From positions 83,638 to 147,637 of IMG/VR virus record IMGVR_UViG_3300049033_000018: a DNA stretch of 64,000 bases. The stretch is one strand, 5' to 3'. Shown piece by piece: positions 2,817 to 63,691 of this stretch. Numbering within the stretch: position 1 is the first letter of the stretch; every line of letters starts with the position of its first letter. Under the pieces are notes generated by a model. The model saw only the letters and a list, made by a program, of their open reading frames with translations. It had not been told where the DNA came from and searched no databases. The position numbers and the translations under genes are program-made. The DNA is from a virus.

Positions 2817-3413
2817 TTAGTTGTCTAATTTAGAATTATGTAATTCTTTTCCAGCAACTGAAACTGACTGAATTATAAGTTGTAAGGCTTTTTCGAAAAA
2901 AGAATATTTGGTTTTCATATTGCCAATAATAATTTTTAGTTGGTTTAAATCCCTCCTAATTTTCTGATACCTCTCATCATTGTTGATAACTTTCTCAGCT
3001 TGAGCTATTGAAACTCCTGTTGATTTATTAATCTCTACTAACAATCTTGAGTAAATCTCTTTCCTGAAAACTTCATCGAGAAACTCCAATTCATACAGAA
3101 ACCTATCTCTATAAGAGGATAAGTATGTCATTTCATTGGTTATTTCCTTTTTGATAGTTTCTAATTCTAGGAGATTAGTTCCTCCAGGTAAGTTAGTATA
3201 TCTTTTAATTTTATCTTCAATAGAGGTAGTAAGCCTTACAACCTCATTAATTTCTTTTTGAGTTAGATTAATAGGAAGAACAACTTCATCTATCGTCTCT
3301 ATCTTGGATAAAATATTATCTAGAGTATTAGTTAATTCAACATTATCTTTAACTCTTTCTTTGTTGCCCAAAATGAGCATTTTAATAACTTTATATTCTT
3401 GTGAATCAAACAT
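2817..3413 (-). CDS. Helical protein, possibly UvsY-like
   Basis: Coiled-coil character; AQAEKVINNDERY recalls UvsY, weak. Confidence 0.3.
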   Translation of the reverse strand: MFDSQEYKVIKMLILGNKERVKDNVELTNTLDNILSKIETIDEVVLPINLTQKEINEVVRLTTSIEDKIKRYTNLPGGTNLLELETIKKEITNEMTYLSSYRDRFLYELEFLDEVFRKEIYSRLLVEINKSTGVSIAQAEKVINNDERYQKIRRDLNQLKIIIGNMKTKYSFFEKALQLIIQSVSVAGKELHNSKLDN

Positions 3414-54831: not shown

Positions 54832-56796
54832 TTATTGAAATAACCAGTCTGGTAGGACCACTCCTCCTTGCTGAAACTTTTTTTCTAGAACAATGTTTGG
54901 AAAGTAGGCTCTTTGTTGTGGGGAGAAACTCTTATGTAATGGTTCTTCCTCTATGAGTTTTGCTCTATCGAATCCTAGTTCTTCAATTTGTTTATTAAGT
55001 TCACTGAAATATTCTTCGAATTCATTTTCGTTTCTAAAGGTTGCTCTTACTCTTGATGGGTCTTTACTCATGCTGTTCATTCCTACAAATCCATCTTGAT
55101 ATGAGTTGAACTTATCTTGTTGGGATTGTTTTAGAACGTTTTTAAATGAGTCCCAGCTTAGGGAGCTGTTTTCTTTTATCTTTCCACCGATAGGAATAAA
55201 GTCGTCTAGCATCTTATAGGCTTTACCTGCTTTAATTGGGGACGAAGGCATGTCAGCATAGAAGTTATAGAAAGGGTCTTTATTTCCCTCTTCGAAGTAT
55301 TTTTTAAGGGCTATTTCTTCATCATATGACATAATCTCTCCTTCAGGTGTAGTTTCTGTCATTGGGTTTCTGATTGAAGATTTGTTAGGGGTCCTGGATA
55401 GTTTCATTCCTCCTGGAAGGTCTGCTTCTATACTGGATGGTTTGGCTGCTGGTTTATATCCTTGGAGCCAGTCTTTTTCATATACCTTTACATTTTCATC
55501 ATAAATATCCAGTGGTCTTTTAGATACTCTTACGTCTGTATTTTCAGGAGTATATTTACCAGTTCTTCCATTGACTTTAGGGGTGAATGCTTCTTCACCT
55601 TTTCTGGCTTCATACAAATACTCAGGTCTATTATTTTTATAATACAGGGAACCTTTATTATAGTAGGCATCATCACCAAAACTTTTAGCAATTGCTCCTG
55701 CTTCATCTATGGCTCCTACATTCTGTTGTCCTTTGATAAGACCCATTGTTTGTTCTAGCTCATTGAAGGTGTCAGCATCTACTTGTCTATAAAAATTATT
55801 TGAGTTAGTTCTAAAAGCAAATGGATTTACTTTATAAGCATTAGGAAGATTCTCTGCTCCATATCTATTGATGTCTGCTACAATATCGGCTGCTTTAGGA
55901 AGTTTACCAATGTTATCAACTAGCCCCAATCCTGCGTAGGTTAAAGGGTCAGTAATAATGTCTTCTGTAAGATTTGCATCATTCTTAGTACCTGATAAGG
56001 CATCCTCAAAAGAATAGTCATCTCTGTATGCTGATTGTACCATCTTTGCTGGAACTGCTAGAGGTGCAAGTAAACCAAGTTGGTCCATGCTTCTTTCAGC
56101 AAATCCATACTGACCTGTTTCAATCTGATATTGTTTTCTATTTTGTTCTACATTTGTTAGGCTGGTATCATTCTGGATACTTTGGATTAATCCCCTGTCT
56201 CCTCCTCCAAGCCATTCAGGAAGAATTTCATTTCCTACTGTATAGGCTCCTCTATTAAAGTCTGACCAGTAGCTTGGTTGAACTCCTGCGTTTCCTGATT
56301 CAACAATGTATTCACTTAAACCTTCAGGCAATCCTTTTGTTAATCTATTTAAATAAGCCCCTCTAGCTTCTGGAGTATCTCCATCATTATTAGCTGGGTT
56401 CTGTTGTAAGAACTGTCCAATTAATTGTTGCTTGATTTGCTCATCATATTGTTGTTTGTAAGAAGGGTTCACTTCCCAGAATTTATCTGAGCTTTGTCCT
56501 AGACCTCTTGCTATTGAGCCAGTCATCTCATCTTCAAAGTAAGGCTTCATGTAGTTTTCAAAACTACTTTGCTGAGTTAGTTGTTGGTATTGTTTGAGTA
56601 AATCGTGGGCACCTTCCTGAGGATAATAATTACCTCTCTCATCCTCACCATATAGAATACCCTGAGCATAATAATCTTCATAGTCTGAAGAGTCTGTTGC
56701 CAAAGTTTCTCCTGTACTTAGTTGTACATATGTTTTACCGTCTTGTCCTTCGTATTGTTTTAAGACTCTGATTCCAGGTCCCTGAAATGTTGCCAT
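54832..56796 (-). CDS. Large protein, probable internal virion/ejected protein
   Basis: 654 aa, Q/G/D-rich, C-terminal KFQQGG motif; own promoter at 56853 and terminator-like hairpin at 54796-54822. Confidence 0.45.
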   Translation of the reverse strand: MATFQGPGIRVLKQYEGQDGKTYVQLSTGETLATDSSDYEDYYAQGILYGEDERGNYYPQEGAHDLLKQYQQLTQQSSFENYMKPYFEDEMTGSIARGLGQSSDKFWEVNPSYKQQYDEQIKQQLIGQFLQQNPANNDGDTPEARGAYLNRLTKGLPEGLSEYIVESGNAGVQPSYWSDFNRGAYTVGNEILPEWLGGGDRGLIQSIQNDTSLTNVEQNRKQYQIETGQYGFAERSMDQLGLLAPLAVPAKMVQSAYRDDYSFEDALSGTKNDANLTEDIITDPLTYAGLGLVDNIGKLPKAADIVADINRYGAENLPNAYKVNPFAFRTNSNNFYRQVDADTFNELEQTMGLIKGQQNVGAIDEAGAIAKSFGDDAYYNKGSLYYKNNRPEYLYEARKGEEAFTPKVNGRTGKYTPENTDVRVSKRPLDIYDENVKVYEKDWLQGYKPAAKPSSIEADLPGGMKLSRTPNKSSIRNPMTETTPEGEIMSYDEEIALKKYFEEGNKDPFYNFYADMPSSPIKAGKAYKMLDDFIPIGGKIKENSSLSWDSFKNVLKQSQQDKFNSYQDGFVGMNSMSKDPSRVRATFRNENEFEEYFSELNKQIEELGFDRAKLIEEEPLHKSFSPQQRAYFPNIVLEKKFQQGGVVLPDWLFQ

Positions 56797-58745: not shown

Positions 58746-59102
58746 TTAATTTAATGTTAATGATAGGTTTTTAAATAATTGTTTGTGTTGTTCTCTTGAA
58801 ATTGCTTCTACAGCCACTGCTGTCATTTGGTTTCCAATATCAGGTTCCAGGAATTTGTGATACTTAATTTTTAAGTCATCCAATCTGTGGATTATCCTTT
58901 GTATTTTGGACTCCGAAGCTTCAAGACAACACAGGTAATTACTACCCATCTGCCATTGCTTAAACTCATGTTCAAAATTAGCTGCAAAATCAGCTAAGGC
59001 ATGTACACTTTGTACACACTTGTAACCTGGAGTTAAATCATCTCTGGTGATGATTGTCATAAACTCGTTACCTGTCTAAATGTTAATTAAATCTTTTTTC
59101 AT
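58746..59102 (-). CDS. Peptidyl-tRNA hydrolase type 2-like protein with in-frame TAG at codon 9 (59076-59078)
   Basis: IITRDDLTPG...QSVHA...FLEPDIGNQMTAVA is Pth2-like. The upstream in-frame ATG 59102 gives MKKDLINI*TGNEF-MTII; the downstream ATG 59060 is the alternative start. Confidence 0.7.
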
Positions 59103-59269: not shown

Positions 59270-59403
59270 AGTATAAAATTTTTTAATTAAAATAATACAA
59301 GCCTCCCCTCAAACTCTCTTACTCTATGGGAGGGCGACAATATTGTGCAGGTCGAAGAGTTATCCACCCAACACTATGCTCCACCGCTAAGTGCATTGTA
59401 TTG

Positions 59404-59474
59404 TCATTCCAGTGGGATTCGAACCCACGCACACAGTTTTAGAGACTGCCGTTCTACCACTGAACTATGGAACG
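59404..59474 (-). tRNA. Amber suppressor tRNA (anticodon CTA)
   Basis: CGTTCCA/TGGAATG, GTTC-AGTGGTA-GAAC, GCAGT-CT-CTA-AA-ACTGT, GTGGG-TTCGAAT-CCCAC. Confidence 0.88.
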
Positions 59475-59599: not shown

Positions 59600-59665
59600 G
59601 CTTCATATCAGGATTCGAACCTATCTTCCCTTACTGGGCGTGCTAACCATTACACTAAAATGAAA
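59600..59665 (-). pseudogene. Degenerate tRNA / tRNA-like RNA with shortened anticodon arm
   Basis: D arm GTGT-AATGGTTA-GCAC, mini arm CCC-AGTAA-GGG, AGG-TTCGAAT-CCT. Confidence 0.6.
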
Positions 59666-59760
59666 AACTCTTCTATCCTCTCACGGCAATGAGATTCCTG
59701 AAAAGAATGGTATGGGCTAAGGTTGGATTGCCGTCCTGTTATAACTGCCACCAATTTTTG

Positions 59761-59832
59761 AAGTCCGCCTGGGAATCGAACCCAGCTCATCAGAGCGAAA
59801 GTCTGAGGTACTAACCGATATACGAACGGACC
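59761..59832 (-). tRNA. tRNA-Glu (TTC)
   Basis: GGTCCGT/GCGGACT, TCAGA-CT-TTC-GC-TCTGA, CTGGG-TTCGATT-CCCAG. Confidence 0.88.
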
Positions 59833-59837
59833 AAATT

Positions 59838-60423
59838 CAAGCTACAGGTCTTGTTAACTGATACTCCACACCAAGTGCCCCAGTCAAGGCTAGAGGAATC
59901 GAACCTCATTTGCTTTTTTCCAAATAAAAATGTTTTAACTTTGTATTTGCTGTATGTAGCTTTATCAAATTACTTTTGTTTTTTCAAATACCAATTTTGA
60001 TTTTTTTAGTTTGCTGTAAGTAATTTTATCAGAATAGTTTTAGGAATTGAACCTTATTAATCGTTTATGAGACAATTTTTTAACCAAATTTCTTTGCTGT
60101 TACTATTCTTATCAAGTTTCATTTTTTGTTTTTACGTTGCTCTACCCACTGAGCTACTCCCAAAGATTTCTAGATTTAACTTTGTTTGGGAGGAAGGATT
60201 CGAACCCCCGACACACGGCTTTCAATGCTTAACTTTATACTTGCTGTATGAAACTTTTTATATTCAGGTTACTGTTGAGGTCTTTAAGTCTCCTCATTAC
60301 TTCTCTAGACAATTTAACTTCTCACTAGAATACGAAGTTGTAGATATGGCTTTGCGTTTGCATTCTACGTTACGTTAATGTTTATCCTGTAATTGTTTTT
60401 TTGTGTTTGCTGAAAGTAACCTT
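59838..60423 (-). ncRNA. Tandem array of five Y-RNA-like units (stem-CAGCAA-payload-stem-GA)
   Basis: Units at 60265-60423, 60113-60257, 60030-60110, 59966-60027 and 59838-59963; each has a distinct, perfectly complementary 8-9 bp closing stem with CAGCAA starting at position 11. Confidence 0.8.
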
Positions 60424-60434
60424 ATTAATAACAC

Positions 60435-60493
60435 TGCAAAGATACAAAATATTTTTGATATATGCAAATTTTGCAGTGTTAAATTTATATTAA
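60435..60493 (-). promoter_or_regulatory. Promoter driving the ncRNA array
   Basis: TATCTTTG at 60437-60444, TTTG -33 element, TTAAC-like box at 60478/60489; flanked by AACACTGCAAA inverted repeat. Confidence 0.75.
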
Positions 60494-60498
60494 AATTA

Positions 60499-62184
60499 TT
60501 AAAGAACTTCTACTCTTTGAATTAGCTCTTGAGACAACGCCTCTCTGACTAATTCATCTGCTGTTTTAATCTTACCTGAAAGGAAAGAAACAATGGCAGC
60601 AGAATAACCACTAAAGTAATATACATTACTTACATCTCCATGAGTCTCGAATTTTGTAGATGTACTACCATAATAACCGTTAGGAATATTCCAAAGTACA
60701 ATTACAAAGTTATTAACATAGTCTTGAGAAAATCCTGCATTTCTTAAAGAACTCAAAGCAGTTTCAACATTAGTTTTACCTAATTGACCTGGATTAAATT
60801 CTCCATCGGAAATACATAAGATGCCAGTTGGGAACTCATCTTCACTGATTCCTTTTGATTTCAGTTCACAGAATAGTTTGATAACTGACTGGAAGTTTGT
60901 GCTTCCATAAGCTTCAGACCTATCATTTTTCCACTTATCAACAGGAGTCTGACCTACCCATTGGTGCATTCTTGCTGTATCATTAAATTCAATCCAAGAG
61001 TTGGCGAACCTTCCTTGTAAGAATTCAGAAAAATACAAAGCTAATGCTTTACCAATATTGTAAGAACTCATGTTGGTTCCTTTAGCTTCAGAAGTCATTG
61101 AAGAAGAGGTATCTCTTACAACAATTAAACTTGAAATTCCAGAATCCCCAGCCTTTCCTACAAGTGTAGTAAATTGCTTGTTGATAGTTTCCTCTTGAGC
61201 CTTTGAAATCTGTGCAGATTCAAATTTTCTATTTATGTTCAAAGGTGAGAATAACTCATGAACAAAACCAGTATACTTAACATCTTTGGTTTCTGGTGAA
61301 GTAATCCAAGCTGCATACCTGTCAGATAATTTTTGATTGAACAAAAATTTAGACTGAACTAATTTAGATAGAGCTCTACCATGAATTTTACCAAAGTCGA
61401 TAACATCAAACTTTCTTTGAGAGATAAGTTTTTGCCATTCGTGAGCAGTACCAGAAGTTTTTAATTTTCTGTATTGCTTGTAAGTAGAACCAGTTGATTC
61501 TCCTTTATTACCATAAAGTAATGAACAAACCCATTTAGCAATCATGTTGTCAGCCTGAGCTTCTACTGTTTTACAAACAGAGTTTGATTTAATTTGTGGT
61601 AAATATTTTTTAACTAACTCAGAAGAGTTTGAGTTTTCTAATCCTGAAAGAACTAGGTCTCCAAACTTTTTCCAGTTAAGTTGTCTACCTTCCCAACCGT
61701 GATGAACAAGGTCGTAAGAAAGCATTGTGAAAATATCTTTCCAACTACCAGCAGAGATTAGTAATCCTACGTTAGCCCAGAAAGTTTTTTCGTCTTTGAA
61801 ATACAACCAAAGGAATCTCATGATACCTTCATGTCTAAGCTCTCCACCTTTTTGAGGTCCTTGAGTCTTAGTACCATCAAGATACATTGTTTCTCTGGAA
61901 ATCATTCTCACAAAAATTGAGAATGCTACAGTATCCCACTTGTCAGAACCCCAAAGTAATTCAGAGTCTTGTGCGATTGCCTTGAAACTTCTAGGAGCTT
62001 TATATTCACCTAAAGAACCAAACTGGTCAACTAAAGCACTACCAGTAGTAGAATACTTTAAAGCACCGTTTGCTGATTTAGTTTCTGCTCCTTTCTTTAA
62101 AGCTGCATCAACGAATGCAGATGTTGTGTTGTTAACTGTTTTTGCAGGTACTGCAAATAAAGTTTTTTTCTTGCTGTCAAACAT
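60499..62184 (-). CDS. DUF2828/DUF7788-type protein (Ro60/TROVE-like helical domain + VWA)
   Basis: NGA..YSTTG..LVDQF, GSWKD, AKW, MIDAS DTSSSM, GSTNF, ISDGEFN, IVLWN, SGYS. Confidence 0.8.
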   Translation of the reverse strand: MFDSKKKTLFAVPAKTVNNTTSAFVDAALKKGAETKSANGALKYSTTGSALVDQFGSLGEYKAPRSFKAIAQDSELLWGSDKWDTVAFSIFVRMISRETMYLDGTKTQGPQKGGELRHEGIMRFLWLYFKDEKTFWANVGLLISAGSWKDIFTMLSYDLVHHGWEGRQLNWKKFGDLVLSGLENSNSSELVKKYLPQIKSNSVCKTVEAQADNMIAKWVCSLLYGNKGESTGSTYKQYRKLKTSGTAHEWQKLISQRKFDVIDFGKIHGRALSKLVQSKFLFNQKLSDRYAAWITSPETKDVKYTGFVHELFSPLNINRKFESAQISKAQEETINKQFTTLVGKAGDSGISSLIVVRDTSSSMTSEAKGTNMSSYNIGKALALYFSEFLQGRFANSWIEFNDTARMHQWVGQTPVDKWKNDRSEAYGSTNFQSVIKLFCELKSKGISEDEFPTGILCISDGEFNPGQLGKTNVETALSSLRNAGFSQDYVNNFVIVLWNIPNGYYGSTSTKFETHGDVSNVYYFSGYSAAIVSFLSGKIKTADELVREALSQELIQRVEVL

Positions 62185-62223
62185 CTTATATATGATTTAT
62201 TGGTTATTGATTAATTATTACTT

Positions 62224-62281
62224 TGCAAAGATAAGAAAAATTTTCTTAATATGCAAATTTCTTTTGTTAAAATTTTGTTAA
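62224..62281 (-). promoter_or_regulatory. Promoter with TTAAC box for the DUF2828-type gene
   Basis: TATCTTTG at 62226-62233; GTTAA at 62266 and 62277. Confidence 0.75.
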
Positions 62282-62465: not shown

Positions 62466-62813
62466 TTAATAATAAACTATCTTTACTGGTTTGTTTAAAA
62501 ACCTCATGTAGTCTATCATATGTTTTGTTCCTTTACTTTCTCCATTCCAGAAAGCAATTAATACATCAGCAAAGTTACCCATTTCCTGATTCCTAATCGG
62601 TCCTGCTGCATTACCATGCATGTTCCAATTTGCAGGAAACTCATGTATAGGATAGTTATTCTCTTTTGCATAAAGTTCTCCTAAAGAATCAGCTCCTTTT
62701 GCTTTGCCACTGACAATCTCAACTTCTGTTTTATTTTTTAGAAGGTAATCACATTTAGTTTTTAGTAACCCATAATTCATGAATTCTCTCCCTCCTGCAA
62801 TAATAACTTTCAT
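62466..62813 (-). CDS. SLOG-family protein (DUF2493/YspA-like)
   Basis: IIAGGR.F, IVSG.AKGAD, AGPIRN.EM, AFW.G.SKGT..MI. Confidence 0.85.
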   Translation of the reverse strand: MKVIIAGGREFMNYGLLKTKCDYLLKNKTEVEIVSGKAKGADSLGELYAKENNYPIHEFPANWNMHGNAAGPIRNQEMGNFADVLIAFWNGESKGTKHMIDYMRFLNKPVKIVYY

Positions 62814-63235
62814 TAGGCTTCAGCAATTGCTTTTTTAATCTCTTCTGGTTTGTTAATACCTTTAGAATGCTTATTCATCATACCAAAAAGTTTACCTTCA
62901 TGGATACCTGGTTCATTAAGCCTAATTTGTCTTACCATTGCCATTAATTCAGAATGTGTTAAAGCCACAGGAAGGTACTTTTCTAGTAAGATAAGTTCTT
63001 CTTCCTCCTTAGCTGCTAACTCAACTCTTTGACCTAATGTATAAGCCTCTATTGCTTGATGTCTTTTCTTACATTCTTTAGTTACAATATTTAGCACTTC
63101 GTCCTCTGTTAAATCTCTTTTTAAAGCAATCCTTTCATTATCTATAGCACTTACTAAAAGTGATAAGGTTCTTTTTGCTACTTCATCTCTTGCTTTTATT
63201 GCATTTACAAAGTCTTTTCTAATTCTTGGTTCCAT
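62813..63235 (-). CDS. GatB/YqeY domain protein
   Basis: AIKARD, KKR..AIEAY..G.R.ELA.KE..E...L..YLP. Confidence 0.85.
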   Translation of the reverse strand: MEPRIRKDFVNAIKARDEVAKRTLSLLVSAIDNERIALKRDLTEDEVLNIVTKECKKRHQAIEAYTLGQRVELAAKEEEELILLEKYLPVALTHSELMAMVRQIRLNEPGIHEGKLFGMMNKHSKGINKPEEIKKAIAEA

Positions 63236-63247
63236 TTTCTTTTGATT

Positions 63248-63691
63248 TTATATTATTCCAGAGTTCCTCAATGCTATATTAATATTAGAGTACTCTTCTT
63301 TTCCTGTTACTTCTTCTCCACAATATTTAGGAATGTTTTCTAAAGTTTCACCTTCATACTCAATCTCTACTACTGCCATCCCATCTGGATACAAATCTAT
63401 ATCCACTGTATTTCCTTTGTATGAACTTTTGTATCTCATTTTAATGAGCTTTACTTCCGTGTTATTTAACATTTCTTCAGCATCTTCTAATGGTATCTCA
63501 TACTCATATTCAATTCTAGTAGTATCAGAATGATTAATTTTAAATGCTAAAAATGCTTCTTTTCGGTTTACTATTCTAACTCTAAGATGTCTATCATCCC
63601 CCAATATCAAATACCCTTGTTCTATAAGACTTCCTTTTCTTATGTATTTAGGAAGCTCAGTTAAGAGAAATTTTCTTTCTTTTTCAACCAT
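63248..63691 (-). CDS. CYTH-domain protein
   Basis: EKERKF, IEQGYL, RVR, R.EYEYEIP, K.RY, EIE, EVTG..EYSN. Confidence 0.88.
   Translation of the reverse strand: MVEKERKFLLTELPKYIRKGSLIEQGYLILGDDRHLRVRIVNRKEAFLAFKINHSDTTRIEYEYEIPLEDAEEMLNNTEVKLIKMRYKSSYKGNTVDIDLYPDGMAVVEIEYEGETLENIPKYCGEEVTGKEEYSNINIALRNSGII

Follow-up and report, generated by a model that had tools for sequence, protein, structure and literature searches.

The window analysed here is a stretch of 64,000 nucleotides (nt), positions 83,638 to 147,637 of the virus record IMGVR_UViG_3300049033_000018, a phage genome of 157,140 bases with 31.7% G+C and 24 tRNA genes as called by ARAGORN. On its minus strand, an array of five small RNA units lies just downstream of a gene encoding a protein of 561 amino acids, and these RNAs are likely to be the partner RNAs of this protein, which would be a divergent Ro60 made of a helical ring and a vWA domain. 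The units share what we call a handle, a predicted terminal helix of 7 to 9 bp followed by an unpaired CAGCAA at a fixed distance; comparison of related loci shows that this arrangement is kept by covariation and is tied to the gene family. Most of the payloads enclosed by the handles copy parts of tRNA, namely anticodon stem-loops, T arms and permuted tRNA elbows, and lack a free acceptor end, as shown statistically below. These data are best read as those of a divergent Ro60/Y-RNA system with a role around tRNA damage.

The five units, all on the minus strand, are unit 1 (60266-60422, 157 nt from stem to stem, 8-bp stem), unit 2 (60114-60256, 143 nt, 9 bp), unit 3 (60031-60109, 79 nt, 8 bp), unit 4 (59967-60026, 60 nt, 9 bp) and unit 5 (59839-59962, 124 nt, 8 bp). 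An initial annotation, made by reading the sequence, had described their 5' ends, their CAGCAA motifs, their complementary 3' arms followed by GA and their lengths of 62 to 159 nt counting this GA, and we recovered all of these exactly. Each closing stem is perfect, and CAGCAA begins 10 nt after the first base of each unit, its own first base lying at 60412, 60246, 60099, 60016 and 59952, respectively. The linkers between the units measure 9, 4, 4 and 4 nt and three of them read GATA. As also annotated, the array leads into a tRNA-Glu(UUC) gene (59760-59832, minus strand), which begins 6 nt past unit 5; we detected no terminator-like site between the two, and tRNA-Glu is probably carried by the same transcript as the array. 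Dinucleotide shuffles of the array region (n = 1000) contained on average 0.005 units and at most one, and in the whole 157-kb genome the five array sites are the only CAGCAA motifs with a stem of at least 8 bp in this register.

A promoter pointing into the array had been placed at 60437. We found there, by pattern matching, TTTG-N20-TAnnTTTG (60437-60468, minus strand), 15 nt before unit 1, and a second match precedes the protein gene (62226-62257, minus strand). This pattern recurs about 30 times in the phage genome. We take the TTTG / TAnnTTTG consensus to be that of a Bacteroidetes-type promoter, and the promoter type points to Bacteroidota as the host group. A scan for sigma-70 promoters gave no enrichment, and this promoter type was judged wrong for this phage. 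At the gathering level, Rfam matched tRNAs only, and the five units were called neither by ARAGORN nor by Rfam. Indeed, none of them has the complete cloverleaf with a free acceptor end that defines a tRNA gene.

The association of the handle with the gene was measured by pattern scans with controls, in which the strand of the gene was compared with the other strand. The initial annotation had proposed, as a test, to look for enrichment of stem-CAGCAA units near related genes of phages and bacteria, and this enrichment was strong, also in a reverse search that started from the RNA. Among 85 viral loci, 79 contain at least one unit, with 305 units in the orientation of the gene and 7 in the opposite one, while eight control hexamers gave between 5 and 19; the units of these loci use 144 different 7-bp stems and form arrays of up to 11 different payloads. 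In 80 metagenome loci the two strands carry 234 and 8 units. Cultured phages of Leptolyngbya, Mycobacterium, Bacillus and Escherichia carry handle units, and the same units are found with distant bacterial homologues (28-34% identity), one of them on an 8-Mb chromosome: 16 of 32 such loci contain units, 32 on the gene strand against one. In these distant units CAGCAA lies one base nearer the stem, and the register follows the clade of the protein, being 10 in the phages considered here and 9 in Saprospiraceae. The search with the RNA pattern alone retrieved 16 records with arrays; 15 encode the protein and the exception stops at a contig edge, whereas none of 12 stemless pattern matches has the protein gene. 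In 11 of these 16 the stretch examined holds no tRNA gene. Since the RNA pattern was derived from this clade and many of the loci are related, locus counts are not to be read as independent samples.

Covariation was measured on stems that had not been preselected, by taking motif pairs defined by GATA linkers. The full 7-bp stem was present in 93 of 113 pairs, against 3.6 with shuffled partners; most stem positions use three or four types of pair, and G-U pairs are present. The linker is 4 nt long in 107 of 151 adjacent pairs and reads GATA in 82, which suggests that the GATA-type linker is a processing site. One cultured system may be mentioned here: in Mycobacterium phage Chaser (6526-6790 of the locus, plus strand), the gene annotated 'Ro-like RNA binding protein' belongs to DUF2828/DUF7788 and not to TROVE, and it is followed by three handle units, one of which contains a permuted tRNA module.

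The 561-residue protein (60499-62184, minus strand) matches the Pfam domain DUF7788 above the cut-off (E = 2.6e-10) and PHROG 850, 'RNA-binding protein' (E = 1.7e-33). It had been labelled a DUF2828 protein. This label does not apply to the window protein itself, for which DUF7788 is the only match, but it holds for the family, because 71 of 102 homologous N-terminal domains match DUF2828 (PF11443) at E 0.05, the best at 5e-18, and relatives from three loci, that of Chaser among them (L016, L217, L223), exceed its cut-off. The family is present in 362 cultured-phage records and also in bacteria and giant viruses. Pfam TROVE (PF05731) matched neither the protein nor any of the 102 N-terminal domains at E 0.05, nor was it found in five bacterial genomes carrying the homologue; a search of the PDB with the single sequence gave no match.

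The AlphaFold2 model has a predicted local distance difference test score of 93.3 and a predicted template modelling (TM) score of 0.91. It comprises a disordered N-terminus (about residues 1-21), a helical ring (about 22-346) and then the vWA domain that corresponds to DUF7788. With the whole chain, Foldseek placed Ro60 in each of its first 13 rows (best E = 3.5e-8, TM 0.49/0.57), and in VIA the chain gave Z = 18.7 to Xenopus Ro60 (1yvp_A), with 433 residues aligned and a root-mean-square deviation (rmsd) of 4.4, compared with Z = 10.8 for rows that match the vWA domain alone. The family profile also matches human Ro60 by sequence, in the vWA part (E = 8e-4). The Ro60-like architecture proposed in the initial annotation is thus recovered in the predicted model, and structure prediction shows a Ro60 fold for this protein. 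In the metal ion-dependent adhesion site, D358-x-S360-x-S362 is invariant and T429 and D460 are conserved at 90% or more (132 sequences). Many conserved positions are basic residues of the helical part: R65, R93, R97, R123, K193, R239 and K242. In two phages (loci L226 and L231, genomes G003 and G008), an insertion of 1.0-1.3 kb, probably an intron, interrupts the Ro60-like gene at one shared profile position, 443.

A sixth handle, absent from the initial annotation, overlaps the start codon of the Ro60-like gene (62118-62186, minus strand) and is a candidate autoregulatory operator. Its 5' arm, AG-ATG-TT, occupies 62186-62180, CAGCAA 62176-62171 and the 3' arm 62125-62119, followed by a G. 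In other words, the start of the gene, AG-ATG-TTT-GAC-AGC-AAG, is also a 7-bp arm and a CAGCAA in the correct register, and the complementary arm with its G lies inside the coding sequence, 59 nt downstream. Among 79 homologues of less than 80% identity, 17 have CAGCAA at the start, all of them with AG before ATG. Of the 35 genes with AG before ATG, 31 have the in-gene 3' arm, compared with 3 of the 44 others. The two features are scattered over the tree (17 changes, 9 of them forced); about six of seven independent pairs support the association and no pair contradicts it (median p 0.03). Within a 400-nt leader, handles were found for 17 of the 44 genes lacking AG and for none of the 35 that have it (p = 1e-5, uncorrected for kinship).

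We considered that the in-gene 3' arm could reflect mere conservation of the protein, and rejected this explanation: the arm lies in the disordered, poorly conserved N-terminus, its position shifts from +33 to +69, and it tracks two untranslated bases that precede ATG. RNA-binding proteins that control their own translation typically have their site at such a place, and a handle at the start codon or in the leader suggests feedback of this kind; it is also the best indirect evidence that the protein reads the handle. Given the sixth handle across its start codon, binding of the unit RNAs by the protein is very probable. Autoregulation through this handle, matching the protein to the RNA supply, is probable.

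The payloads had been described as unrelated, which we cannot maintain since units 2, 3, 4 and 5 hold tRNA-derived parts. Unit 2 carries a 7-nt loop on a 2-bp mini-stem (60228-60218) and then a circularly permuted tRNA module, with a T arm (60209-60193), a closed acceptor-like stem (60192-60157) and a D arm (60154-60139). It scores 35.5 bits against YrlA (RF02553; E = 9e-6), below the gathering score of 69, and this match comes from the T arm, the closed acceptor stem and the D arm, the Ro-binding motif not being matched. Such a permuted tRNA-like domain of the YrlA type is present in this array in unit 2 only and in at least 27 of 270 units of the family. In unit 3 the tRNA parts follow in normal order, a D-loop remnant, an anticodon arm (60076-60060) and a T arm, and the anticodon loop, CUCAUAA, is that of the phage's own CAU tRNAs. 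Unit 4 is a single 5-bp hairpin with the 7-nt loop AUUGGUA (60000-59984). In unit 5 an anticodon-like arm (59930-59914) reads UUG, or UGG in a shifted register; a T arm (59907-59893) follows at tRNA spacing and then an extra hairpin. The payload of unit 1 matches no tRNA and no Rfam family and is kept, at 73-76%, in the two nearest phages only, two relatives being too few for a structure.

The tRNA character of the payloads was evaluated on 171 non-redundant short units. Hairpins with a 7-nt loop occur in 117 of them, compared with 62.9 in shuffled sequences, and 7 nt is the only loop size above shuffles, together with a 9-nt reading of the same hairpins. U33 combined with a purine at position 37 was found in 66 units, against 11.3 in shuffles (maximum 21). 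G37 accompanies G36 in 12 of 21 cases, against 1 of 59; in real tRNAs, G36 with G37 is the m1G37 rule. The commonest anticodon is that of Lys, UUU (15 of 80). The nuclease PrrC targets tRNA-Lys(UUU) (PMC10264068), and YrlA has been suggested as a possible competitive inhibitor of an anticodon nuclease (PMC7790460). As the payloads are mostly tRNA mimics, the idea of a decoy is sharpened. Other payloads were noticed in related loci: one handle unit (L009, 2935-3050, plus strand) encloses a complete tRNA (2961-3033, Rfam 53.4 bits), and two long payloads (L005, 6202-6351; L006, 5956-6182; both plus strand) have in common a conserved non-tRNA module, a CAGG helix with a GAAA-type loop that by eye loosely recalls helix 8 of signal recognition particle RNA.

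The system resembles Rsr with YrlA and YrlB (PMC4201824, RF02553) in several respects: the protein has a ring-plus-vWA fold, the RNAs combine a terminal stem with a module and are encoded no more than 4 kb from the gene, on its strand, unit 2 has the YrlA layout of permuted T arm, closed acceptor and D arm, and rtcB adjoins the gene in some bacterial relatives, as it does with Rsr (PMC7790460). Other features differ. The handle is a short perfect stem followed by unpaired CAGCAA, whereas the Y RNA has a bulged helix; the GNCGAAN0-1G Ro-binding motif of YrlA was not found in the array, nor any GNCGAA, in agreement with the initial annotation, which had set the handle apart from the canonical Y-RNA stem. 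The Pfam families are DUF2828/DUF7788 here and TROVE there, with 9-14% identity, and, unlike YrlA and YrlB, handle units form arrays of up to 11 with 4-nt linkers, many display anticodon loops and one handle covers a start codon. The best YrlA scores, 35.5 bits for unit 2 and 39.4 bits in locus L001, stay below gathering. Because the TROVE hidden Markov model, the GNCGAA motif and the YrlA cut-off all failed, we do not file this system as a member of Rsr/YrlA.

Thermus phage phiLo also encodes a Ro60 fold with adjacent RNAs, Yrl1 and Yrl2 (PMC12135203; PDB 9KOP, 9L5Y), and its Ro60 is both the best Foldseek match of our protein and the best match of the helical domain alone; in contrast to the handle units, the phiLo RNAs use a CGAA bulge motif, the proteins are 13-14% identical, and CAGCAA is absent from the text of the phiLo paper (PMC12135203). 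Another of the closest known systems is that of the cultured Escherichia phage Bas63 (JohannRWettstein), whose gp130 is a homologue of the window protein (hhalign 100%, E = 2.9e-40) with an identity of about 24-27%, and which has four handle units (L223, 5744-6580) among its tRNAs. A preprint on PhageMaP reported that gp130 is Ro60-like and counters the Ppl defence, and merely speculated that Y RNAs could be hidden among the annotated Bas63 tRNAs; the handle RNAs are not described in it (PMC11482910). Thus the Ro60 likeness of the protein has already been reported (PMC11482910), and the part that would be new is the family of handle RNAs. As the initial annotation had supposed, we found no account of the handle in Rfam or in the literature searched, which did not include Burroughs and Aravind 2016 and two reviews of the Wolin laboratory, where a mention is possible.

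The best Rfam match of unit 4 is the dictyostelid Class I RNA (RF01414; 28.3 bits, E = 0.0073). Class I RNAs (Kjellin et al. 2021, PMC7919456) are similarly about 60 nt long, with an AAG start, a short terminal stem of variable sequence, an adjacent unpaired 11-nt motif ending in ACAGCAA, a variable middle and a G-led tail after the stem. Unlike them, the handle units score below the gathering value of 41.5 (best 39.3, a Leptolyngbya phage unit) and their stem-motif spacing differs by one base. Class I RNAs are moreover transcribed from separate genes with a DUSE promoter, their known partner is the RRM protein Rnp1A and they are reported only from Dictyostelia (PMC7919456). In the literature searched, nothing links Class I RNAs of Dictyostelium to Ro60 or DUF2828.

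Nine of the 32 distant bacterial loci have rtcB at no more than 4 kb, and seven have a WYL gene. On a Saprospiraceae chromosome (L210), the order is a divergent WYL gene, rtcB, five tRNAs, the Ro60-like gene and three handle RNAs. These WYL-rtcB-gene-RNA loci parallel the rsr-yrlBA-rtcBA operon of Salmonella, which is induced by damaged tRNA (PMC7790460). In three loci (L197, L201, L217), one or two copies of a 220-aa gene that has no Pfam match stand between rtcB and the Ro60-like gene.

How might such a system work? A host-polymerase promoter would give one precursor, cut at the GATA-type linkers into the unit RNAs and tRNA-Glu. The ring would bind the handle as Ro60 binds the stem of a Y RNA, the RNA ends being protected, and the particles would present unchargeable tRNA mimics to host enzymes that act on tRNA. 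The likeliest role would be that of decoys or competitive inhibitors of tRNA-cutting defences, or of tethers in tRNA repair and decay; we put forward the decoy role only tentatively. Excess protein would occupy the sixth handle and so block its own translation at the start codon.

Several observations weigh against this scheme. The loci with rtcB are mostly from Saprospiraceae; the RtcB model has no match in this phage genome, and neither has the T4 Rnl1 model, in a search that was run without a positive control. The relatedness of the loci makes the counts overstate their independence. Unit 1 has no tRNA part, and overall the units fold no better than shuffles (z from -0.9 to -1.6). Taken by itself, the helical domain gives only a weak match to Ro60 (best Z 7.7, 248 residues aligned, rmsd 5.0): phiLo Ro60 ranks first of 48,161 chains with a Z that is within the range of chance helical matches, although alignments over 230 residues were obtained with the three Ro60 rows only, and Foldseek with this domain gave no match at E 0.001 (best E = 1.3). 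Finally, these RNAs were absent when gp130 was expressed from a plasmid or from T7, and it still helped against Ppl (PMC11482910), which means that the anti-Ppl activity does not need the phage RNAs.

This last observation favours another view of the RNAs, possible but rather doubtful, in which they are mainly gates. The real job of the protein (anti-defence, RNA remodelling or repair) would then be RNA-free, and the handle RNAs would serve only to turn it off, to titrate it or to link it to partners such as PNPase or RtcB, while the tRNA parts would contribute to stability or modification rather than act as decoys. Y RNAs are indeed gates and tethers for Rsr (PMC4201824), phiLo Ro60 with its Yrl RNAs dampens host PNPase (PMC12135203), and the rtcB linkage in bacteria fits as well. 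Gates leave unexplained why short units follow real anticodon-loop rules with many different anticodons, and why arrays hold up to 11 different payloads. This view is compatible with binding and competes only with the decoy step.

Binding itself is at stake if the handle is a processing or stability signal of phage tRNA-type transcripts that is read by a host enzyme or another protein. The units would then be tRNA genes that have decayed or been recycled, and the Ro60-like gene a mere neighbour in tRNA regions. An array that continues into tRNA-Glu, in a phage with 24 tRNA genes, and payloads derived from tRNA, with a whole tRNA inside the handle in L009, would be expected in that case. We nevertheless consider it improbable: 15 of the 16 arrays found by pattern come with the gene and 11 have no tRNA gene in the stretch, the real tRNAs of this genome are without a handle, the register varies with the protein clade, and the handle on the start codon or leader of the gene points to this very protein. 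The tandem layout with a constant motif could also suggest elements that act as DNA, such as a repeat array or sites for recombination or protein binding. This is very improbable in view of the strict strand bias (305 versus 7), of stems that vary in sequence but keep their pairing with G-U pairs, of the tRNA-like loops and of the promoter match directly upstream.

If the preferred reading of a divergent Ro60/Y-RNA system is true, DUF2828/DUF7788 would gain an RNA partner and a function class, the known ways in which the Ro60 ring recognizes RNA would be doubled, and unchargeable RNAs that display anticodons would add a new kind of counter-defence to those of phages, one that could be tested immediately in Bas63 and E. 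coli K-12. For the Class I RNAs of Dictyostelium, whose role has stayed unsettled for some 20 years, the likeness to the handle would provide something definite to test. A much broader proposal, which we regard as unlikely in its entirety, is that of a second, widespread Ro60 lineage that uses a different handle as a plug-in platform, presents anticodon-loop and tRNA-elbow baits to tRNA-cutting defences and controls itself at its start codon; the same handle would then be the origin of the amoebal Class I RNAs, which would be Y-like RNAs of a DUF2828 protein.

Other features of the neighbourhood, all on the minus strand, mostly concern tRNA. The loop of tRNA-Glu(UUC) downstream of the array is CUUUCGC, with G at position 37, where A37 is usual; the change is possibly nuclease-evading. 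Between it and a well-formed tRNA with a CUA (amber) anticodon (59403-59474, 69.4 bits) is a degenerate tRNA-like stretch (59600-59694), with a D arm and a T arm, no anticodon call and no handle. Downstream of the amber tRNA, a Pth2-like open reading frame (ORF; 58746-59102, PF01981, E = 0.0019) has an in-frame upstream ATG with one TAG in between. Because TAG still terminates 8 of 102 long ORFs in the genome, the amber tRNA looks like a suppressor rather than a sign of full recoding. A 654-aa ORF (54832-56796) matches neither Pfam nor PHROG. Upstream of the Ro60-like gene, SLOG (YAcAr), YqeY and CYTH genes, of tRNA- and nucleotide-related functions, lie among tRNAs (62466-63691).

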